From: a virus
Length of the DNA stretch: 64,000 nt
Direction: 5' to 3' (one strand)
Virus record (IMG/VR): IMGVR_UViG_3300027976_003475
The notes below the pieces were generated by a model, which did not search any database, was not told where the DNA came from, and saw only the letters and a program-made list of their open reading frames with translations. Of this stretch, positions 23 to 29,028 are shown one piece after another. Position numbers and translations under genes: made by a program. Positions within the stretch are counted from its first letter, which is position 1. Every line of letters begins with the position of its first letter.

Positions 23-478
23 GTGATGGACCGCTATCTCGCCCGTTACGGGAGCGAGGTGGAGATTCCCGAGGCCGAGCCCAAGATTCGGCGCGACGTC
101 CACTATGGCAACGCGCACGAGGACGCTCTCTCCATGCACTGCGGGGTGTTCGCCGGGTGCAGCGTGCGGAGCGTCGGGCGCCTGCTGTACGAGGGCACCA
201 GTCGGGAGGCGTTCCGCGGGGACAAAAAGACAACCCGATACGTTGGGCCGGAGTCGGCCGTGCTCTCTGCGGTGGAGCTGTACGAGCACCATCGCACCGC
301 CCTTGCGGAAATCCTCGAGGTCGTTGCAAACGGCTTTCGCTTCGGCGCGATGCCGCTCCCCCCCAAGGAGGCCCGCACAGAGGCGCGCGCTCTGAGCCCC
401 GCGGTTGCGAACGCTCTGCGCGCCGCCGCAGATTTCGGCCGCGCCAGCAAGCCCGTCAAGCGCCTGGGCCCGGCGTGA
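23..478 (+). CDS. Hypothetical protein
   Basis: Protein-like ORF, GTGA-coupled to the next gene. Confidence 0.6.
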   Translation: MMDRYLARYGSEVEIPEAEPKIRRDVHYGNAHEDALSMHCGVFAGCSVRSVGRLLYEGTSREAFRGDKKTTRYVGPESAVLSAVELYEHHRTALAEILEVVANGFRFGAMPLPPKEARTEARALSPAVANALRAAADFGRASKPVKRLGPA

Positions 479-935: not shown

Positions 936-1120
936 GCGCCCGTCATGTGTGGGTGCCTGAGCCGTCGGTGGGCGACAGCGCCCGCTCGAAGTGCTCGCGG
1001 TGCGGTGTGCTGCGGCGGGTGCGGTTTTCAATCACGGCGGGATACACCCGCGAATGGTCCGCGGCGCCCGAGGGCCCGTGGGATGTGACTGTCAGGGAAT
1101 GCGACAAGGAGCAACGATGA
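932..1120 (+). CDS. Small Cys-containing hypothetical protein
   Basis: CSRC motif; ATGA overlaps on both sides. Confidence 0.5.
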   Translation: MSARHVWVPEPSVGDSARSKCSRCGVLRRVRFSITAGYTREWSAAPEGPWDVTVRECDKEQR

Positions 1121-2040
1121 CCACCGAATCGAAGCGAGACAAGAGGCCCGCGTGGGCCAAGGCGGGCGATCACCTCGGCGTGGAGGTGACGCGCACGGAC
1201 CTGTATTGGTTCCCGCCGGAGTCCCTGCTGATCGCCGGTATTGACAGCCCGGCAGACGCGACGGACCCCCTCTATGATGAGCGCGTCAAGCTCCCGTTGC
1301 AGGCGAAGTTCGTGGCGAACGTCGACCAGCTCGGCGTGAAGCAGACGGTGACGTGTGTCGTGAAGGAAGGACGTCTGTGGGTGGCGGACGGCCGCCAGCG
1401 CGTCCGCGCCGCGCGCGCCGCCAACGGGCTCCGCGCGCAGCGGGGCGACACGCTGTTGAAGGTCCGGGCGTGCTCGACGCCCGAGACGAGCGCGCAGGAG
1501 GTGTTTCTGCTGGCGCGCTCGCTCAATGCGTTCCGGCAGGATGACGGCCCGCTCGCCGTCGCCCGGAATTTCCTCCGGTCGCGGGATACCTACGGAACCT
1601 CCGCCGACGAGTACGCGACGGCCGAAAACATCGCGAGCGCGACCCTGATTGGGTACGTCACGCTGCTGGATCGCGCGTCCCCGGTGCTGCTCCAGGCGAT
1701 CGACGCGGGCGAGGTGTCGACGACGCGGGCGATGCAGGTGGCGCGGCTCAACCCGGAGGATCAGGCCGCTGCGATCGTCGAGACGATGCGCGACACGGTG
1801 GACGAGACCCGGCGCAAGGTGCGCGAGCGGAAGGCGTCGGCGGCGGGAAAGACCGCCGCGACGCGGTTCACGGGGAAGGAAATCCGGCGCGCTGCGGCTG
1901 CGCTGGCGGACGGCGGCGTGCCCCACATGCCGGGGCCCGCGAAGGCGCTGCTCCAGGCGCTCAACGGCGAGCCCATCCCCGAGGGCGCCCCGGCGTGGCT
2001 CGCGGCCGTTTTTGCAGCGGCGGGACGGGGGGAGCCGTGA
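1117..2040 (+). CDS. ParB/Srx N-terminal domain protein
   Basis: YDERVKLP..FVANVDQLGVKQTV..LWVADGRQRVRAAR resembles the ParB N-domain; AAGGAG RBS. Confidence 0.75.
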   Translation: MTTESKRDKRPAWAKAGDHLGVEVTRTDLYWFPPESLLIAGIDSPADATDPLYDERVKLPLQAKFVANVDQLGVKQTVTCVVKEGRLWVADGRQRVRAARAANGLRAQRGDTLLKVRACSTPETSAQEVFLLARSLNAFRQDDGPLAVARNFLRSRDTYGTSADEYATAENIASATLIGYVTLLDRASPVLLQAIDAGEVSTTRAMQVARLNPEDQAAAIVETMRDTVDETRRKVRERKASAAGKTAATRFTGKEIRRAAAALADGGVPHMPGPAKALLQALNGEPIPEGAPAWLAAVFAAAGRGEP

Positions 2041-2534
2041 ACCCCGTGAACCCCGTGGCGTTCGGGGAGCCCCCGCCCCCACGGTCGCAGTTCGAGCGGG
2101 AAGTGCTCGCGCTGGAGAACACCATCCTCCTGGCCGTGGCCGTGGTGGAAACGGCGCACGACATGGTGGCCGTGGCGGTGCACGTCTACGCCGTGCCCGC
2201 TCGTCGCGTCGTGGAGTCGTTCGGATTGCGTCTGCTGGCCCGCCACGGGGGCCACATGGCCGACGAGGTGGCCGCGCTCGCGGAAATCCTACCGGCAGTG
2301 CGGCAGTGCGGCAGCCGCACGCCGCAACCGGCGGAGGTGGCCGCGCTGGTGGCCCTGACGCACGCCGCGGTCGCGGTCGAGAGCATCGCGGCGGGGGAGA
2401 GCCGCCACCACGCCTTCGCGCTGCGGTTCTTCGAGGCCGCGGCGCGGGTGCACGCGCTCCACGCCCCGGCAGGCAGCGAGAGCGACGCCCAAATGTGCTC
2501 GCGTGCTCGCGTGCTCTTGCGAATCAACCCTTAG
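2037..2534 (+). CDS. Hypothetical protein
   Basis: GTGA overlap with the ParB gene. Confidence 0.55.
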   Translation: MNPVNPVAFGEPPPPRSQFEREVLALENTILLAVAVVETAHDMVAVAVHVYAVPARRVVESFGLRLLARHGGHMADEVAALAEILPAVRQCGSRTPQPAEVAALVALTHAAVAVESIAAGESRHHAFALRFFEAAARVHALHAPAGSESDAQMCSRARVLLRINP

Positions 2535-13779: not shown

Positions 13780-14184
13780 ATGGCGAACAGACGAGACGTG
13801 GCGCGCGCGCGCGCCGGGGCGAAGGACTTACGAGACGCGGACCTCCGGGGAGCTGTGCTCGACGGGCTTGATCTCAGCGGTACGGACCTCAGCGGCGCGG
13901 ACTTGAAGGGCGCGGACCTCAGCGACGCCCGGTTCGACAACGCCCGGCTCCGCGGCGCGAGCCTCCGAGGCGCGACTCTTACCGGCGCCAGCTTCGTCGG
14001 GGCAGACCTCCAGAACGCCGACCTCAGCGGCGCGCTCCTGATCGCAGCCGACCTCAGCGCGTCGGACTGCTTTCGAGCGCTCTTCCGCGGCGCCAAGATG
14101 ACGCACGCGAGGTTTCGTCACGCCTATTGGGCCGAGGCGGATTTCAGCGGGGCCACCGGCCCGGTCGCCGCGCCGGGCTCCTGA
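13780..14184 (+). CDS. Pentapeptide-repeat protein
   Basis: ADLRG/ADLSG/ASLRG/ATLTG repeats. Confidence 0.9.
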   Translation: MANRRDVARARAGAKDLRDADLRGAVLDGLDLSGTDLSGADLKGADLSDARFDNARLRGASLRGATLTGASFVGADLQNADLSGALLIAADLSASDCFRALFRGAKMTHARFRHAYWAEADFSGATGPVAAPGS

Positions 14185-19486: not shown

Positions 19487-19556
19487 CTCGGCATCGTACC
19501 CGCTCCGTTTCGGGACACAAGGGAGGCGGGAATGATAGTGTTTGCGCCGGAGGGTT

Positions 19557-20123
19557 ATGGGTCATCACACGTCTCGATTCGTCGCATTCGACTGCGAAAC
19601 CACAGGACTTGAAGCGGACGCCCGTATCATCGAACTCGCCGCCGTGCGGGTGGACGTCCCGACGGGCATTGTGGTCGCACGGTGGCGAACGCTGGTGAAC
19701 CCGGAGGTGCCCATCCCGGCCGCCGCGACGAGCGTGCACGGCATCACCGACGCCATGGTGCGCGAGGCGCCCACGATCGCGGAGGCGCTGCGGGAGTTCC
19801 TGGCCTTCATGGCGCGCGGCCCGGCGGTGGCGCATCACGCGCGCTACGACGTGCAGCGGTTGACCTTCGAGGCGCAGCGCGCGGGCGTCGCGCTCCCCGG
19901 CAACGTCCCGGTGTACTGCTCGATCGACGCGAGCCGCGTCGCGTTCCCCGGTGAGCCCAGCCGCGGCTTGCTGAACCTCGCGCGAACGCTCGGGCTCCCG
20001 CGCGAGGGCGCATCGCATCGCGCGGGCGGCGACGCCGCGCTGGTCGTGCAACTCATGCTGCGCTGCTTTGCGGCGGCACCCCGCGACCTGACCGGCTACG
20101 CGCCCGCGGTCGGGTCGCTTTAG
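19557..20123 (+). CDS. DEDDh 3'-5' exonuclease (DnaQ/epsilon-like)
   Basis: VAFDCETTGL, VHGIT, VAHHARYD, HRAGGDA. Confidence 0.9.
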   Translation: MGHHTSRFVAFDCETTGLEADARIIELAAVRVDVPTGIVVARWRTLVNPEVPIPAAATSVHGITDAMVREAPTIAEALREFLAFMARGPAVAHHARYDVQRLTFEAQRAGVALPGNVPVYCSIDASRVAFPGEPSRGLLNLARTLGLPREGASHRAGGDAALVVQLMLRCFAAAPRDLTGYAPAVGSL

Positions 20124-21133
20124 CGCCCCTCGATGACAACCTCGGGCCACGGGTACGGCCCCGCGCCGTTGTTCAGAGCGTCGGGGTCAACGTGCTCGAG
20201 TTTCGCGAGCAGGTTTTCGTACCAGCGACGCGCGTAGAGCTGGCAGTTGTTGCAGTGCTGGTGTGTGCAGCCGGGCAGCGGCGCCGAATAGCGCGCGTCG
20301 AAACTCCACGCCGTCGAGTCCGCGCTCCGCAGGAGCTTCCACACTGGCAACCACGCCCCATATCGCTCCCACGGCGTTCCCCGGAGCGAGGTGCCGAGCG
20401 GGCGGTTACTGAGGGTCACGTTGGTCAGACCGTCGGTCTTGAACCCGAGCGCATGGAGCCGCAGGCCATGCTCCGCGAGGTCCGCAAGCATCATCGCCGC
20501 GCGAAGCGTCGCGGAGCGGCGGCAAATGGAACCCACCCCCACGACGGGCTCGCGCCGGAGGTCGATGCCCCGCGCGTAATACATTTCAAGGTGCCGCTCG
20601 TGATCGCCAATGCCCCAGCCCTGGAGCACCGGGGCCCACGGGACGTCAGGCGCGATCGTGCGGAGCTCGATCAGCGAGTCAATCGTGAGTTGCTGGTGCC
20701 GCTCGACGTCGAGCCCGGTGAGCGAGAGCACGCACTCCTCGGTCATCCAATCCATGATCGCGGCCCACTCCAGGCCACCGCACTCCTGCATGAACCGGCG
20801 CACGCCATCGGCGTAGCGGCGCGCGTCGTACGTCCATCGCCCTTCGGTCGACAGCTCCTTGAACCCGCCGCTGTCGAGGCACCACTTGGTCTGCGCGGGG
20901 CGGAGCGAGCGCACGTCTTGCAACTCGCGCATCTGCCGGTAGCTGATGAAGAGCGGGACACCCTGCATCGCCGGATCGAAGAGCCAATGCGGCTTGTGAA
21001 CGCCCAGGTAGAACGTGAACGGCCGGGCGTTGGGTGAGAGCATCGGCGCCACCCGCCGCGCCGGGGGCGGCGGAGGGGAGGGGCGGGGCGGGGTCGCCCA
21101 CTCGAAAAGCATTTGATCTGTGCGGCGCTTCAT
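20120..21133 (-). CDS. dpdA: DpdA-like / tRNA-guanine-transglycosylase-fold protein (7-deazaguanine DNA insertion)
   Basis: LDSGGF, IMDWM, PVLQG, VGVGSIC, LHALG, ADSTAW, terminal HCNNC. Confidence 0.75.
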   Translation of the reverse strand: MKRRTDQMLFEWATPPRPSPPPPPARRVAPMLSPNARPFTFYLGVHKPHWLFDPAMQGVPLFISYRQMRELQDVRSLRPAQTKWCLDSGGFKELSTEGRWTYDARRYADGVRRFMQECGGLEWAAIMDWMTEECVLSLTGLDVERHQQLTIDSLIELRTIAPDVPWAPVLQGWGIGDHERHLEMYYARGIDLRREPVVGVGSICRRSATLRAAMMLADLAEHGLRLHALGFKTDGLTNVTLSNRPLGTSLRGTPWERYGAWLPVWKLLRSADSTAWSFDARYSAPLPGCTHQHCNNCQLYARRWYENLLAKLEHVDPDALNNGAGPYPWPEVVIEGR

Positions 21134-21148
21134 GGACGATGCCGTTCT

Positions 21149-21544
21149 CTACCGATGCAGGTGTAGCGGGCGGGGCCACGCGCCCGCGCCGAAGGTCTGC
21201 ACCGCATCGGCGGCCGTGTAGCGGATCGGCTTGCCCAGGATCACCGCGGCGAGGTCGTCGGCGCGCTGCTCCGAGCCCGGCAGGTGACGCGACGCATCGG
21301 CGGCGTGTCCCAGCTCGTGCGCGAGGAGGGCCCCTACGACGTCGCGGCCCCGCTTGAGCGCCCGCGCGAGGAGGTGCACGTCCCCGTTGACCATCCACGC
21401 GAGGTCACGCCCCGCACAGGGCGTCCAGGCGTCCGGGCAGGGTCGGCGGACGATGTAGAGCTGCGCCCGAGACACCGCCGGAAAGAGCGACGCGAACGCC
21501 TCGCGCTGGCGCCGGAACACGGCTCGTGTCTCATCGAAGGTCAT
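21149..21544 (-). CDS. Small HExxH zinc-metallopeptidase-like protein
   Basis: LLAHELGH..EQRADDLA. Confidence 0.6.
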   Translation of the reverse strand: MTFDETRAVFRRQREAFASLFPAVSRAQLYIVRRPCPDAWTPCAGRDLAWMVNGDVHLLARALKRGRDVVGALLAHELGHAADASRHLPGSEQRADDLAAVILGKPIRYTAADAVQTFGAGAWPRPLHLHR

Positions 21545-22665
21545 CGCCGCTTGGCGTTGGGCTTGGGCTTGTGCGCGGCGCGGTGGGCCGCCAGCGCCGC
21601 CGCGCCAGCGGGCGTCAGCGTCAGGCGGTCCTTGGTGGCAGTGAGCAGACCTGCTTTCTGGCACCGCCGGAGGTGCGGCACGCTCGCGGGCTGCACGCGG
21701 TTCGGCACGCTCTGCGAGTCCCCGAAGAACTCTGCCAGCACCCACACGTTGAGGTCCGTCGGCGTTCCCGCGGCCGGGCGGGGCGCCGCGGCCGGGCGGG
21801 GCGCCGGGGCGTAGCGGGGCGCCGCGGCCGGGCGGGGCGCCGGGGCGTACCGGGGCGCCGCCCCCGGCGCGGCGTGGGGGTTGTGCTGCGCGGCGCGGTG
21901 GTCCGCCAGCGCCGCCGCGCCAGCGGTCGTCAGCGTCAGGCGGTCCTTGGTGACCGTGATCAGACCTGCTTTCAAGCAACGCTGGAGGTACGGCCGTTTT
22001 GTGGGCTCCATGCGGTTCGGCACGCTCTGCGCGTCCCCGAAGAACTCGTCCAGCACCCACACATAGAGGTCCGTCGAGGGCGCCGGGGCCGGGCGGGGCG
22101 CCGGGGCCGGGCGGCCCCATTCTCTCTCAGCCGCGCGGTTCGCCGCGGCCCGTTGGCGTATCGCGGCGTCCATGGCGTCTTCGCCGCGGGACGCCGGGCG
22201 GGGGTCGGGTGCGTACCGGGGCGACGGGGCCGGGCGGCCGGATTCTCTCGCAGCCTCGCGGCGCATCGCGGCGTCCATGGCGTCTTCCCCACGGCGCATC
22301 GCGGCGCCGATGGCCGCTTCCTCGCGGCGCGACTCCTCGCGCGTCCGCGCGTCCTCCCGCGCGATCATCTCGACGCCCGTAGGCGTCAGGTGGAACTGGT
22401 GACGGGACTCGATGACGTACCCCACCTCGGTCGCGCGCCGCAGCGGCTCGACGTCGTACGCAAGCACCCGCTCTCGCTCGACGACGTGCGCGCGGCCGTA
22501 GAGGAAGAGCGTGTGCAGACTCAGCTTGTCGTCCGCCGACAACAGTGGGGGCGCGACGAGGAGCGGTGACCGCTCGGGCGCCGGAGGGCGACGGGGCATG
22601 GCCGACTGCATCGGGGGCGCGTCGAAGAGCGACGGCTGCGCGGGGGCGTAGGTGCGACGGGGCAT
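21541..22665 (-). CDS. Protein with repeated winged-helix-like modules and Pro-rich linkers
   Basis: Two near-identical VWVL.EFFGD.QSVPNR..KAGL.T.TKDRLTLT.AG units; ends KPKPNAKRR. Confidence 0.65.
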   Translation of the reverse strand: MPRRTYAPAQPSLFDAPPMQSAMPRRPPAPERSPLLVAPPLLSADDKLSLHTLFLYGRAHVVERERVLAYDVEPLRRATEVGYVIESRHQFHLTPTGVEMIAREDARTREESRREEAAIGAAMRRGEDAMDAAMRREAARESGRPAPSPRYAPDPRPASRGEDAMDAAIRQRAAANRAAEREWGRPAPAPRPAPAPSTDLYVWVLDEFFGDAQSVPNRMEPTKRPYLQRCLKAGLITVTKDRLTLTTAGAAALADHRAAQHNPHAAPGAAPRYAPAPRPAAAPRYAPAPRPAAAPRPAAGTPTDLNVWVLAEFFGDSQSVPNRVQPASVPHLRRCQKAGLLTATKDRLTLTPAGAAALAAHRAAHKPKPNAKRR

Positions 22666-22689
22666 GGTGCGAACCTACCCCGACCCGCG

Positions 22690-22870
22690 CCCGGACGAAA
22701 GGTGCCGCGCCCGTTGAGCGGGCGGGCATCGCGCTTCCGGCGATGTACGCGCTCGGCTTCGACCACAACAACTGCCTCGGGTGCGTCAAGGCCACGTCGG
22801 CGGGCTACTGGAACCGCACGCGAAGACTCTCCCCGAGGTGTTCGCGGGGCGTTCTACCGGCGCGCGGTAG
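22690..22870 (+). pseudogene. Relic of a phage PAPS-reductase-like/PP-loop gene
   Basis: VERAGIALPAMYALGFDHNNCLGCVKATSAGYWN, then an apparent 1-nt frameshift that would restore LFPEVFA; N-terminal part absent. Confidence 0.65.
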
Positions 22871-23663
22871 CGCGGGTGCGGCGGGCGGGCGCGATCTCGG
22901 GCGGGGTCAGCCGCACCGTGGGCGCCGGTGGCGCTGCTACTGGCGCGCGGGAGAGGTCACCGAGGGTGTACGCGGCCTCGTCGCTTCCCACCGGGTTGAT
23001 GTGCGCGAGGTTGGGGCTGATGGCCCACCCGGCGCCGCCCTGGCCGTCCGTCGCGATCATTTGCGACCCGGCGAAGCTGTGATCGTAGGCATCGGCCGCT
23101 TCATGCTGAAGCCGCGTCGCGGCCTCGCGGATGTTTTCGACCGTGCCGTTGTGGGGCGCCTGGAGCACGTCAATGGCGAAGCCGTCGCGCGAGCGCAGGA
23201 AATAGTACACCGTGAACGGCGCGTGACCCGGGCGACGCGAGGGCGCGGGGGCGCGGGGGCGCGGGGGCGCGAGCGCAGCGGGCCGCGCGTTGCGCTTTAC
23301 GGTCGACTCTCGCACCGCATCGCGCACGCCCTGATTGAACGCGGCGAGGAGGGCCTTGTCGTCCCCGATGTCGTAGCGATACGGGCTTCCCGACGCGCCC
23401 ATGTTCCAGAACGCAAGCTCTTGGACGGCGTACAGGAACGAGGCGGGGGACGGCTTCGGCAGCTTGTACGCGCCCGTGCTGTGGCGCTCATGGAGCTCCT
23501 GCTCTGACCGCAGCTCCACCTTCACCGCCTCGCGCCCGAACTCCGCCCCGAGCGAGCGCGCGACCGAGCGCGGGGCCGTGAACCTCACAGGGGCCGCATG
23601 GGGCACCTCGACGGCGAAAACTCTCTGGCCGTACTGCCCCGCCCTGTGTCCGTTGCTCTGCAT
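22854..23663 (-). CDS. Two-domain hypothetical protein split by a KRN/Pro linker
   Basis: ATG overlaps the desulfurase stop; STVKRNARPAALAPP junction. Confidence 0.65.
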   Translation of the reverse strand: MQSNGHRAGQYGQRVFAVEVPHAAPVRFTAPRSVARSLGAEFGREAVKVELRSEQELHERHSTGAYKLPKPSPASFLYAVQELAFWNMGASGSPYRYDIGDDKALLAAFNQGVRDAVRESTVKRNARPAALAPPRPRAPAPSRRPGHAPFTVYYFLRSRDGFAIDVLQAPHNGTVENIREAATRLQHEAADAYDHSFAGSQMIATDGQGGAGWAISPNLAHINPVGSDEAAYTLGDLSRAPVAAPPAPTVRLTPPEIAPARRTRATARR

Positions 23664-24877
23664 CACCGCACCCTGTTCTTTCGCGCGCACTCCACCAGAA
23701 TCCCCGCCGCTTCTTCGACTTGAGCCGCGTCGTTGCAGGCGCCCAGGCCCACACGCACAATCGCGCCGTCATCCGGCGCCCCGAGGGCCTCCAGCACATG
23801 CGAGCGCTGCCCCCCGAGGGCCTTGCAGGCGCTCCCGGCGGACACGCACACGCGCTCGCGCGCGTCGGCGTGGAAGCCCGCGGAGTCGATGCCCACCAGG
23901 GTCACGTTGAGGTTGTGCGGGAGACGCACCAGACGCACCAGCCGCTCCGGCGCGGCCCCTTCGTCCCAGCACGGCGGGTCGATCGCGCCGTTGACGCGCA
24001 CGATCTCCCCCAGGCCCGATTGCAGCCGCGCGAGCAGGAGGTCGCGCAGGTAGCGCAGCCGCGCCGCCTCGGGCCGCGGCCCGCGGGCCCAGCGCTCCGC
24101 CATCTCGTCGCACGCCACGCCGAACCCGGCGATGGCGTGGGCGTTGATCGTACCCGCGCGGCGGCCTCGCTCCTGGCCGCCGCCGAGGGTCTGCGGGTCG
24201 AGGAACTCCCACACCCGCGGGCGTGCGTAGAGAGCGCCCACGCCCGTCGGGCCGTAGAGCTTGTGAGCACTCATGGCGGCGGAGTCGATGTTCGCGAGGT
24301 CGAACGGCACGCGCCCGAAACTCTGGCAGAGGTCCGCGTGCAGGAGCACTCCACGGCGTCCGCAGAGCTCTCCCACCTCGTTGATGGGATTGATGCTGCC
24401 CACCTCGTTGTTCGCGCCCTGGAGCGCCACCATGACCGTCTGCGGGCGCAACCGGCGCTCGACGCACCCAACGCGCACGGCGCCGCCGTCGCGCACCGGC
24501 ACCAGCTCGAAGTCGATCTCACCGCGCGCCGCGGCGCGCTTCAACGGCGCGAGGATGGAGCTGTGCTCCGCGGCGCCCGCGAGCACATGCGGCTTGGCGA
24601 GTCCGCGCGCCTTCGCGCCTGCAATCGCGCCCATTACCGCGAGGTTGTTGGCTTCGGTCGCGCCGCTGGTGAACGTCACGTCTGCGGGATCACAGGCCCC
24701 CAGGAGCGACGCGACCGACGCGCGCGCGCAGTCGATGCGCTCCGCCGACGCGCGCCCCGCGTGGTGCGCGGACGAAGCGTTGCCGCACTGCTGCATCGCA
24801 GCAAGCACTGCTGCTTGAACGCGCGGCGAGGTCGGGGTGGTTGCGTTGCAGTCGAGGTAGATCAGTGGTCGGGGCAT
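23663..24877 (-). CDS. iscS: Cysteine desulfurase (IscS/NifS/DndA family)
   Basis: YLDCNATTP, FTSGATEANN, ANNEVG, SAHKLYGP (PLP Lys), GGGQERG, VSAGSAC (catalytic Cys). Confidence 0.93.
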   Translation of the reverse strand: MPRPLIYLDCNATTPTSPRVQAAVLAAMQQCGNASSAHHAGRASAERIDCARASVASLLGACDPADVTFTSGATEANNLAVMGAIAGAKARGLAKPHVLAGAAEHSSILAPLKRAAARGEIDFELVPVRDGGAVRVGCVERRLRPQTVMVALQGANNEVGSINPINEVGELCGRRGVLLHADLCQSFGRVPFDLANIDSAAMSAHKLYGPTGVGALYARPRVWEFLDPQTLGGGQERGRRAGTINAHAIAGFGVACDEMAERWARGPRPEAARLRYLRDLLLARLQSGLGEIVRVNGAIDPPCWDEGAAPERLVRLVRLPHNLNVTLVGIDSAGFHADARERVCVSAGSACKALGGQRSHVLEALGAPDDGAIVRVGLGACNDAAQVEEAAGILVECARKNRVR

Positions 24878-24886
24878 TGGTGGGGT

Positions 24887-25975
24887 CTACCTCCAGCGGC
24901 GCGCGCGGTGGGGAGGGTGGTCGCGTTCAAGGCCCACCTCCAGGCCGACGTGTTCGGCCACCGTCGCGCCCATGTCGCCGCTGTTGCGCTTCGGCGGGAC
25001 GTCGAGAGTGATGATGTTCGTGGTGAGGTCGAGCGTCGCGACGAACGGCGTCGGCGGCTCTTGATTTGTCCAGCGAAGCGGCATGTCGAGGGCGACGTCG
25101 GCGCGGCGGTCGTGCTTCGCGGCGTCGTTGAACGCGCCCGTCAGCCATTCCTTTACCTCGCGCGGTTCGAGGCGCAGGTAACCGAAGATCGCCGACCAGG
25201 GCATCGCGCCCGCCGCGCGCGGCGTGAGCATCACCGTCCACGATCCCCACGGCACGATTACCGGCGAGGTAAAGTCGCGCGCCGTAACGTGGTAGCTGCT
25301 CGGGAGGTACTTGTACCAGCGATAAATGGCGTCGAGGCTCCCGAGACGGCGCGGCTCGACGTCCGGCACTGCGAAGGTTCGCGTGAACGCGGCGTGCTGC
25401 GCCGCCGCCGCGGCCCGGTCTGCCTCGCGCCGTTGAATCTCGGCGAGGAATGACGCGAACGCGCCGGGCGGCGCGACGTGCGCGTCGAGCGGCACGCGAG
25501 CAAGGTCCGCCATGCCCCGCGCGGCGGCCTCGACGCGGCGCTCCATGTACGAAACGCGGCGCTCGGCTTCGGCGCTCTGGCCCGTCGCGATCAGGTGCGC
25601 GAGCTCCTCCTGTCCGGGGTACTCGCCCGCAATCGCGGTCGTGGTCGCGACGTCCGGGTCACCGTGCGGGTCATCGGGCGCGAACTCCCAGGCGCGGCGC
25701 CACGCCGCTTCGACCCGCGCCCACAACGCGCCAGCGTCCGGGGCCCCAGCAGGCCCAGGAGCGCCCGCCGCCGCGGTGGCGGGCGCCGTGCGCGCCACGA
25801 CCCGCAACGCGGCACCAAGGGCGGCGCGGAGGGCGGCAACGGTCACCTCAAAGGGGATCGCGAACACCTCGCGGTGCTGCGCGCGATCGAAGAGCACCAG
25901 CCGCGCGGTGTCGCCGTCGACATGGAGCTGCAACGCGCGGCCCGCGTCGAGCGGAACCTCTTGGAGCAGGCCCAC
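24887..25975 (-). CDS. Hypothetical protein carrying the shared N-terminal domain
   Basis: N-terminus aligns with those of the SNF2 and DUF3560-MTase proteins; PPKRN near the C-terminus. Confidence 0.65.
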   Translation of the reverse strand: MGLLQEVPLDAGRALQLHVDGDTARLVLFDRAQHREVFAIPFEVTVAALRAALGAALRVVARTAPATAAAGAPGPAGAPDAGALWARVEAAWRRAWEFAPDDPHGDPDVATTTAIAGEYPGQEELAHLIATGQSAEAERRVSYMERRVEAAARGMADLARVPLDAHVAPPGAFASFLAEIQRREADRAAAAAQHAAFTRTFAVPDVEPRRLGSLDAIYRWYKYLPSSYHVTARDFTSPVIVPWGSWTVMLTPRAAGAMPWSAIFGYLRLEPREVKEWLTGAFNDAAKHDRRADVALDMPLRWTNQEPPTPFVATLDLTTNIITLDVPPKRNSGDMGATVAEHVGLEVGLERDHPPHRARRWR

Positions 25976-25979
25976 GGGA

Positions 25980-28274
25980 TCAGTACCGGCGGCGCGGGGG
26001 CGGGCGGCGGTTCTGCTTGACCACGATGCCTGCCGCGGCGAGCTCCTCCATCATGGCGCGCATGAGCTCCTCGTCGCTGGCGCGGCGCGGCGCCGGGGCA
26101 GCGGGCGGGCGGGCCACGGGGGCGCGGCGGGGGCGCGGCTCCTCCAGGGCGGGGGCGCCGAAGCGCGCCGCGCGCGGCGGGAGGGGACGGCGCTCCTCCA
26201 GGGCGGGGACGCCGAAGCGCGCCGCGCGCGGCGGGAGGGGACGGCGCTCCTCCAGGGCGGGGGGGGCGCTCCAGGGGCGGCGCGCGGGGACGTCGCGGTA
26301 GATGTTGCCGGGCTGGTGGGGCGCGATCTCCAGCGTGTGCTGGCCGCGCATCACGCGCAGCGTGTCGCCGGGGCGCTGGCCTTCGTAGCGCGGCGCCCAC
26401 GTCCCGTTGCCTTCGAGCAGTCGTTGCGGGTCGAGCAGCACCACGCCCGGCTCGCCCGCCTGATCGCGCACCACCTCCGCCACGGTTCCGCGCAGCGTCG
26501 ACTCCATGCGATGCCCCGACCGCAGCACGACCTGATCGCCCGCCTTCACGACGGCCCAATGGCCCAGGTTGCGCGAAGCGCGCCCGCCCCCGCCCCCGCT
26601 GCTCTTCACGCCGCCGCCGCTGTTCGTGAACGGCGTCGGCATGTCGGGGCCGGAGCGCTCGGGGACGTGATAGTCGCCCTTGGCCGCGTACTTCGACGCG
26701 AGCCGGACGAACTGCGCGAGGTCGGTCGGGATCGGATCACCGATGTCATACCGACCCTCGTAATAGAACCCGTCGGGGTATTCCACCTTGATCCCCGTCT
26801 TGCAGTAGCCCTTTTCGCCCACGATGCCCTCGCGGCGCCCGCGCGCCTTCGCCGCGATGCCCTCGCGCAGCAACGCCGTGGCTTCCTGCCACATTGCCGG
26901 GCCGGAGAACGTGCGCGGGAGTCCGAGTTCGTTGAGCCGCTCCGATTCGCTCCACTCGAACGTGATGGCGCTGGCGCCGAGGGGGCGTGGGCGGGCCTCT
27001 TCAAGCGCGGGCACGCCGAACCGCGGGGTGCGCGGGGGCGGCGGCATGGTGACGGGGCGGGGTGCGCGGGGCGCGAGCGGCCGGGACGCATGGGGCGGCT
27101 CCTCGCCGCGCACCGTCGCGACCACCTTGGGCGAGCGGCCGGGACGCCTGGGGGGGGGCAACGCGCCCGTACGGATGTCCTCGCGGCGAGCGCCCGCGAG
27201 GGCGCGCGAGCGGGTCATGACATGGCCGCCGACGACGTGCGCGGGGGCGCCGTCGCGGGCGACCGCGCGCGCTCGAATCTCGCCCGCGTAGTCGTCTCCG
27301 CCGACGGTCTGACCGATCCAGGCGTCGGCGCGGTCGGAGTAGTAGGAGCCGCCGGGCACGCCCTGCGAACCGCGGTTGGGCTTGCGGGGCGCTTGCTGCG
27401 CCGCGTACAGCGCCAGGGCGCGGTGCGCGGCGTCAGGGGTGTCGTAGTACGACAACACCGTGTCGCGGGCGGGGCGCCCGTCGTAGCCGTCCGAGGGGTT
27501 CCAGACCTGCGCCACATAGCCGCGGCCTCGCACCTCACCAACCGCGAACTGCAAGCCCAGCGCCGGGTGCCTCCACACGCGCACGTTGCCGACGCCCTGC
27601 GCGAGCCCGCTGGAGACGGTCCTCCACTGCGCGAGCGGGGGCATGTACCCCCCCAGCGGGTCACCGGGCGCGTGATACCCGCCGTGGTGGTTGGGCTTCG
27701 GGGACTCGAACTCGAAGGGCTCGAAAGACGTGTCGTAGGGAACGCCGCCGACGTCGGGCAGGCTTGGGCACTCGTCGTAGGCTTCCGCCGGGACGGGGCG
27801 CCCCGCGCGGAGCTGATCCCCGTAGGTCTCGCACGCGGTTTGGGGGGGTGCCTTCGGCACCCGCACGGCTCGTCGGAGCTCGCGGTCGGGGACGATGTAC
27901 CGCTGCCCCTTCTGCACCGCGAATACCTGCTTGGTCTTCGGCTTCGCCGCGGACGGCGACGCGCCCCCGACGACGGTCACGCGCTGCGTGTCGCAGCGGT
28001 TCACGAGCTTGCCCTTGCGGTTCGGGGTGAGCTCGCAGTTGACGCGCGCGTAGAACTCGCGCCCGACCAGGGTGTCCGCGAACGGGAGGATGGGGAAGTT
28101 CGCCGGGAGCGCGGCGCGTTCGGCAGCGAGCCGATCGCGCGCCTGCTGCGCCGTCAGCTTCGCGGCCTTGTGCGCGGTGAGGTTCTCCGCCGCCATCCGC
28201 TGCTCGATGGTCGTGCGCTTCTGCTCGACGGCCTTGCGGGGCTTCGCGGGCGCCTTCTTCTTCTGCTTCGCCAT
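25980..28274 (-). CDS. Basic multidomain (polyprotein-like) putative virion core protein
   Basis: Lys-rich N-terminus; PKPN, RKPN and KQN junctions; RFGVPALEE repeats. Confidence 0.7.
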   Translation of the reverse strand: MAKQKKKAPAKPRKAVEQKRTTIEQRMAAENLTAHKAAKLTAQQARDRLAAERAALPANFPILPFADTLVGREFYARVNCELTPNRKGKLVNRCDTQRVTVVGGASPSAAKPKTKQVFAVQKGQRYIVPDRELRRAVRVPKAPPQTACETYGDQLRAGRPVPAEAYDECPSLPDVGGVPYDTSFEPFEFESPKPNHHGGYHAPGDPLGGYMPPLAQWRTVSSGLAQGVGNVRVWRHPALGLQFAVGEVRGRGYVAQVWNPSDGYDGRPARDTVLSYYDTPDAAHRALALYAAQQAPRKPNRGSQGVPGGSYYSDRADAWIGQTVGGDDYAGEIRARAVARDGAPAHVVGGHVMTRSRALAGARREDIRTGALPPPRRPGRSPKVVATVRGEEPPHASRPLAPRAPRPVTMPPPPRTPRFGVPALEEARPRPLGASAITFEWSESERLNELGLPRTFSGPAMWQEATALLREGIAAKARGRREGIVGEKGYCKTGIKVEYPDGFYYEGRYDIGDPIPTDLAQFVRLASKYAAKGDYHVPERSGPDMPTPFTNSGGGVKSSGGGGGRASRNLGHWAVVKAGDQVVLRSGHRMESTLRGTVAEVVRDQAGEPGVVLLDPQRLLEGNGTWAPRYEGQRPGDTLRVMRGQHTLEIAPHQPGNIYRDVPARRPWSAPPALEERRPLPPRAARFGVPALEERRPLPPRAARFGAPALEEPRPRRAPVARPPAAPAPRRASDEELMRAMMEELAAAGIVVKQNRRPPPRRRY
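26139..26261. repeat. 54-bp coding tandem repeat (PALEERRPLPPRAARFG)
   Basis: cctccagggcggg recurs at 26141, 26195 and 26249. Confidence 0.9.
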
Positions 28275-28306
28275 GGCGGCGAGTAGACGCCACCGCCCGC
28301 AACCCG

Positions 28307-29028
<722 letters not shown>

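Follow-up and report, generated by a model that had tools for sequence, protein, structure and literature searches.

Why does an uncultured virus carry a cysteine desulfurase a short distance from a DNA guanine transglycosylase, and do the two enzymes work together? The question is raised by a 64,000-nt stretch of the IMG/VR virus record IMGVR_UViG_3300027976_003475, hereafter the window. Its minus strand encodes a 404-aa group-I cysteine desulfurase of the IscS/NifS/DndA type (23663-24877) and a 337-aa stand-alone DpdA-type DNA guanine transglycosylase (20120-21133), with 2.5 kb between the end of the former and the start of the latter. The original prediction had placed the two genes within 3 kb of each other, as they are, and had grouped them with the relic of a PP-loop gene carrying the motif HNNCxGCVK. 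It proposed that the cluster might serve a sulfur-dependent modification of DNA. We favour another interpretation, to which we give a probability of about 55%: the desulfurase would be an accessory enzyme that has lost a neighbouring sulfur acceptor and that is independent of DpdA.

The window has a G+C content of 71%. A desulfurase identical to the one studied here is recorded on a contig of 72,585 bp. Most open reading frames (ORFs) of the window have no family assignment, and the viral identity of the element rests on a few phage-like matches. We describe it as a virus-like, high-GC, uncultured element. Genes were called from the G+C content of third codon positions (GC3). The genes discussed below mostly belong to a minus-strand run that extends from 28520 to 20120 and is broken by a 188-nt spacer between a 278-aa gene and a 374-aa gene.

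The desulfurase and its dead neighbour

The desulfurase matches Pfam family PF00266 (Aminotran_5) at 5.7e-53 and phrog_12787 at 1.3e-74. Its GC3 of 0.88 is of the coding type. The class-V aminotransferase fold spans the protein, E. coli IscS (1p3w) being aligned over residues 6-385 (2.5e-56). Lysine K206 (SAHK), which binds the pyridoxal phosphate (PLP) cofactor, pairs with K206 of IscS. C351 (SAGSACKA) falls in the SxGSAC catalytic-cysteine loop, whose IscS counterpart is SSGSACTS. In alignment A1, which comprises 24 relatives at 47-100% identity and contains about 60 invariant columns, K206, C351, H105 and D182/Q185 do not vary. The earlier description of a complete IscS-type enzyme with intact PLP lysine and catalytic cysteine is thereby borne out, and the enzyme is apparently active, to judge from its residues.

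Its subfamily was sought in NCBIfam. The scores are nearly tied, with DndA best at 252.7 bits, followed by NifS (245.4) and IscS (240.8), and no equivalog cut-off is reached (480, 530.75 and 548, respectively). Because the scores are tied and far below the cut-offs, we class the protein as a group-I desulfurase without a named subfamily. Some relatives (P0010, P0011, P0012, P0016 and P0018) bear a beta-rich C-terminal extension of 130-230 aa, for which there is no Pfam match and no counterpart in the window. The extension is a partner domain fused to the desulfurase or else a run-on in gene calling.

The relic is located at 22716-22870 on the plus strand, within the 188-nt spacer and against the direction of the two genes that flank it. 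A nucleotide search of phage records gave a single match, between 22734-22843 and the “PAPS reductase” gene of Pseudoalteromonas phage PY6, with 76% identity (PAPS, phosphoadenosine phosphosulfate). Plasmid and phage nucleotide searches of the window gave nothing beyond this match. With PY6 gp10 as a query, tblastn found 22/37 identities at 22728-22838 (E 9e-11). In the PDB, phmmer aligned the 41-aa relic translation with residues 176-211 of chain 21fy_C, named “PptA” (E 1.1e-10). The relic corresponds to the most conserved block of the PptA-like family (PY6 gp10; Tunturiibacter phage Tunturi_2 gp58), GIxLPxMYxLGxxNNCxGCVK..YWN. After GYWN, the DNA has a 2-nt deletion and a 1-nt insertion, the PEVF motif resumes in another frame, and a stop codon follows at 22868-22870. 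About 50 of roughly 250 codons are left, comprising only the central NNCxGCVK...YWN...PEVF motif. No other piece of a PptA-like gene was found in the 64 kb, including the N-terminal WFSxGAAS nucleotide-binding loop. The indels, the stop and the truncation identify the relic as a true pseudogene fragment.

What was the intact protein? PY6 gp10 matches 21fy_C at 7.4e-54. Pfam gives no match for gp10 alone, and a weak PAPS_reduct contact is seen in 13 of its 20 IMG/VR homologues. Structural comparison of the predicted model of a PptA-like homologue (mean predicted local distance difference test, pLDDT, 88) revealed PAPS/APS reductases at Z 12-13.5, then the [4Fe-4S] thiolases NcsA and TtuA, as well as LarE, at Z 10-11. 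The PptA-like family has its fold in common with PP-loop sulfurtransferases. Entry 21fy holds E. coli IscS and PptA together. Since a close relative of the PptA-like family shares this entry with IscS, the family probably takes its sulfur from IscS. Our literature search turned up no publication on PptA. The relic stands as a PAPS-reductase-fold gene of the sulfur-transfer type, in line with what had been proposed for it, but not as a demonstrated DndC.

The partner in 21fy is an IscS-type desulfurase, as is the enzyme encoded beside the relic. The arrangement in the window differs from the IscS-PptA pair in that the desulfurase is virus-encoded and only a dead stump of some 50 codons is left of the PptA-like gene. 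It also differs from that of the isolate phages PY6 and Tunturi_2, which have no desulfurase within 4-8 kb of their PptA-like gene. NifS/IscS-type desulfurases likewise stand beside PAPS-reductase-fold proteins in DndA-DndC, in SspA-SspD and in the desulfurase-BrxP pair of BREX type 4. Compared with DndA-DndC, the window has a desulfurase whose DndA score is below the cut-off and a relic of the short phage PptA-like type. That no dndB-E or ssp gene is visible, as the original prediction had it, agrees with our scans: Pfam domains of DndB, DndC/SspD, the ATPase DndD/SspC and the DNA-recognition protein DndE/SspB were all missing from the ORFs scanned across the window.

A reasonable reading is that the relic is what remains of a former desulfurase-acceptor pair. 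In the scheme that we propose, the desulfurase would mobilise the sulfur of cysteine, bind it as an enzyme persulfide and hand it to an acceptor. In an ancestor of the element, this acceptor would have been a PptA-like PAPS-reductase-fold enzyme encoded next to the desulfurase. As the acceptor gene is now frameshifted and truncated, that route would be dead in this element. The desulfurase would at present most likely feed acceptors of the host, such as Fe-S assembly or thiolation enzymes, or an acceptor that has escaped recognition. Of the remnant thio-modification pathway first suggested, the former pair thus remains plausible, and no living acceptor was found to go with it. “PAPS reductase” genes abound in phages, with over 580 matches in IMG/VR, and their role is poorly described in the literature searched. 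A viral desulfurase that apparently once adjoined such a gene, together with 21fy, points to a role as IscS-fed sulfur acceptors, and closely related viruses may hold a complete virus-encoded sulfur relay.

Ancestry and spread of the desulfurase

In a search of 5.8 billion proteins, relatives of the desulfurase grade from 100% down to 47% identity and are followed by cellular enzymes at about 40%. One of the near relatives, at 91% identity, is encoded on a contig of 3642 bp. A FastTree phylogeny of 134 sequences places the desulfurase inside a 36-member clade (support 100) separate from named cellular IscS and NifS. The clade consists of metagenomic proteins and an IMG/VR virus, at 43-100% identity to the window enzyme, against about 40% for cellular enzymes. 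We also scanned GTDB species genomes, with a single genome per species (185,579 species). Among the matches listed (at least 587 confirmed), the best cellular desulfurases have 34-42% identity and none exceeds 42%. Recent capture from a host, which the original prediction had named as its possible undoing, is rejected by this clade structure, which sets the viral/metagenomic enzymes apart from the cellular ones.

When IMG/VR was scanned with single proteins, neither the desulfurase nor DpdA turned up a close relative. More generally, relatives of the desulfurase were found on 39 IMG/VR viral contigs. A 48%-identical desulfurase occurs in an 87.9-kb IMG/VR virus with 67% G+C that has just one other gene in common with the window. 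This virus has neither DpdA nor a PptA-like gene, and the positive controls of those searches worked. The presence of the same clade in an otherwise unrelated virus indicates that it moves among unrelated viruses. The desulfurase is, on the strength of these comparisons, conserved as an accessory gene in a viral/metagenomic clade, and we take it for a predicted working PLP-dependent enzyme kept by a group of uncultured high-GC viruses. Its strong phrog_12787 match likens it to the viral auxiliary desulfurases of PHROG 12787; published papers list iscS or cysteine desulfurase with viral auxiliary genes. It differs from the other sampled viral members in belonging to a distinct clade, in adjoining an acceptor relic and in residing in a genome with DpdA.

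The other gene common to the window and the 87.9-kb virus is a 151-aa ORF (23-478, plus strand) whose start lies 22 nt inside the window edge. It shares 59% identity with a 186-aa gene of that virus (1899-2459, minus strand). The 186-aa copy opens with a helix that we read as DUF2786-like; Pfam found nothing.

Candidate acceptors and the link with DpdA

Several observations weigh against an accessory desulfurase with a lost acceptor and no tie to DpdA. Some 8.6 kb of the 72,585-bp contig extend beyond the window and might encode an intact acceptor, and the ORFans adjacent to the desulfurase remain candidate partners. Moreover, homologues of the desulfurase and of DpdA are found on one contig in four relatives, of 7918 bp (P0008 and P0124), 21638 bp (P0256 and P0250), 30431 bp (P0007 and P0252) and 56457 bp (P0242 and P0128). 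Placement on the same contig was deduced from exactly equal contig sizes, for which a chance match is very unlikely. The smallest contig measures just 7.9 kb, so that the two genes are necessarily close there, and all four desulfurases belong to the subclade closest to the window enzyme. Such lineage-conserved pairing is also what a functional link would look like.

The first of these points raises the possibility that the desulfurase still feeds a virus-encoded, nucleic-acid-modifying sulfur acceptor, which might be a 362-aa or a 278-aa ORFan or a gene in the remaining 8.6 kb. The 362-aa gene (24887-25975, minus strand), which encodes a lineage-specific protein, stops 9 nt ahead of the desulfurase start. 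It has only 8 homologues in 1.84 billion representatives, and these are located on contigs of 64183, 56457 and 141992 bp, all three of which also carry desulfurases. The 278-aa gene (22854-23690, minus strand; GC3 0.87) overlaps the desulfurase stop by 28 nt. Retention of the desulfurase despite the death of the PptA-like gene would also be explained by such an acceptor. However, no cysteine is conserved in the 362-aa family, signatures of the PP-loop, rhodanese or TusA-like kind are lacking, and the low-confidence model of the 362-aa protein (pLDDT 69) matches only generic helical bundles (Z 5-6.4). The 6 homologues of the 278-aa gene are partial, with 36-46% coverage each, apart from the window's own copy, and their contigs do not match the desulfurase contigs. 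The 278-aa ORFan is thus not a conserved desulfurase partner. It has no family match, and neither ORFan has a match in Protein Atlas.

Searches aimed at recognisable acceptors point the same way. Pfam, PHROG and NCBIfam scans of the called window ORFs revealed no PP-loop enzyme, rhodanese, TusA, IscU or radical-SAM enzyme (SAM, S-adenosylmethionine), and no FolE, QueC/D/E or Dnd/Ssp component. A six-frame motif scan of the 64 kb gave no SGGxDS; CxxxCxxC occurs in a coding frame only in one Cys-rich repeat. All in all, a living acceptor encoded by the virus itself appears unlikely to us. In all full-length members of the 362-aa family, the C-terminus bears a PK-x-N motif, then a VAEH(V/I)GLE...GLE tail, and finishes with a basic stretch.

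Could the desulfurase instead serve DpdA? It might provide Fe-S clusters to the radical-SAM enzyme QueE of the host, which takes part in making preQ0, or sulfur for a thio-7-deazaguanine in DNA. The co-residence described above speaks for such a link. So does the lack of preQ0 synthesis genes in the window scans, which means that DpdA must rely on supply by the host. A general DpdA-desulfurase module is nevertheless rejected by the counts in sampled viral records. At none of 160 DpdA loci, examined with up to 10 kb of flank where contigs allow, was a desulfurase or PptA-like gene found; 39 viral desulfurase loci showed no DpdA or close PptA-like gene, and 80 PptA-like loci no desulfurase or DpdA. 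In whole records, a class-V aminotransferase was absent from all 50 DpdA records, including 27 that are at least 90% complete, and from all 50 PptA-like records (18 at least 90% complete). DpdA was absent from all 37 desulfurase-bearing records (34 of them from a further set), among them viruses with a desulfurase of the same clade. Controls of the whole-record searches behaved as expected.

The conserved linkage between desulfurase and DpdA that relatives were expected to display thus exists on four contigs and in no other sampled viral record. In addition, the relic spacer appears to split the two genes into different operons, and no enzyme that would attach sulfur to preQ0 was found. The functional tie first proposed is not upheld by these data, and we regard a desulfurase working for DpdA as improbable. 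Our literature search found no publication on DpdA acting with a desulfurase. In the interpretation that we prefer, DpdA would be an independent 7-deazaguanine transglycosylase in the next operon, presumably using preQ0 made by the host, and the nearness of the two genes would reflect shared descent in one viral lineage and not a shared pathway. Host preQ0 is thought to serve many phages with a lone DpdA. For this genome, the outcome would be a conserved accessory desulfurase, a dead acceptor, and a DpdA that needs no sulfur story.

One may also imagine that relatives with an intact PptA-like gene combine a viral sulfur relay with DpdA, so that their DNA would bear both a sulfur-dependent mark and 7-deazaguanine, the window representing the state after loss of the sulfur arm. 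We see only a slight chance of this. Three desulfurase records contain distant PAPS-reductase-like genes. In two of these, L089 (G012) and L091 (G014), which are provirus or fragment records of IMG/VR, the desulfurase shares its contig with distant PAPS-reductase-like ORFs whose E values with the PptA-like profile are 1e-11 to 1e-13; in G012, one such ORF is about 5 kb from the desulfurase. These genes may belong to Dnd- or Ssp-like modules.

Finally, the desulfurase could be a mere leftover, drifting to decay since the loss of the PptA-like gene in a cluster with no present sulfur-transfer function, as the pseudogene state of the sole identifiable neighbouring acceptor would allow, but this is very improbable given its full-length frame, its coding-type GC3, the persistence of its clade in unrelated viruses and the invariance, down to 47% identity, of 60 columns that include all catalytic residues.

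The dpdA operon and other genes

DpdA matches PF23859 at 4.5e-57 (193.7 bits, for a cut-off of 27) and phrog_1279 at 3e-60. In alignment A2, D87 of the DSGGF motif, D128, D272 and the H291/C294/C297 block are invariant. In DpdA enzymes, the active site has three invariant aspartates, and zinc is bound at a structural site (PMC10164549). We matched D87, D128 and D272 to Salmonella Asp95, Asp130 and Asp256 by motif order only, and the A2 profile found no solved DpdA structure by sequence. Only the closest metagenomic relatives share the N-terminal extension (about 40 aa) and the insertion (about 25 aa) of the window DpdA. A metagenome scan gave nothing but generic DpdA loci (40-48% identity) and missed the 56,457-bp contig.

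Among isolates, the nearest relatives come from mycobacteriophages, whose DpdAs are about 40% identical. These phages often carry a lone DpdA gene, and Larva gp86 and Chris gp42 likewise have no adjacent preQ0 genes. The window DpdA differs from them by its extension and insertion and by the winged helix-turn-helix (wHTH)-repeat and HExxH genes that it follows. In the bacterial Dpd island (DpdA-K), DpdA adjoins DpdB, a ParB-like ATPase, and DpdC. Both are absent beside the window DpdA, whose neighbours are the wHTH-repeat gene, the HExxH gene and a DnaQ-type exonuclease. The bacterial DpdA requires the ParB-like DpdB. The sole ParB-like gene of the window (991-2040, plus strand; phrog_1033, 5e-25) is 19 kb away from dpdA.

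Together with the wHTH and HExxH genes, dpdA appears to form a separate operon beyond the 188-nt relic spacer. The first gene of this apparent operon (21541-22665, minus strand) encodes a 374-aa repeat-bearing protein with weak HemN_C and wHTH-PRTase_assc matches. It contains an internal duplication of 315 nt (87% identity) and 18-nt repeats coding for Pro/Ala-rich linkers. At its 5' end, a 66-nt tandem duplication gives two alternative starts, at 22665 and 22599. The second gene (21149-21544, minus strand; GC3 0.89) encodes a 131-aa protein with an HELGH (HExxH) motif and no Pfam match. Its ATG overlaps the stop of the 374-aa gene (ATGA), so that the two appear translationally coupled, and dpdA starts 15 nt past its end. 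The HELGH product may be a small metallopeptidase that pairs with a DNA-binding protein. In plain ORF lists, this gene is concealed within a longer shadow ORF.

Convergent with dpdA is a plus-strand gene for a DnaQ-type 3'-5' exonuclease (19542-20123; PF00929, 1.1e-29; phrog_192, 5.5e-40). At the other end, the minus-strand run is headed by an 846-aa protein (25980-28520) resembling the LPD25 domain of large polyvalent proteins, with a PF18840 match (E 0.0041) that is under the cut-off. Elsewhere, a pentapeptide-repeat protein is encoded at 13780-14184 on the plus strand (PF00805, 2e-29). The pentapeptide-repeat fold can mimic DNA in other systems, and this protein might have an anti-restriction or gyrase-protecting role.

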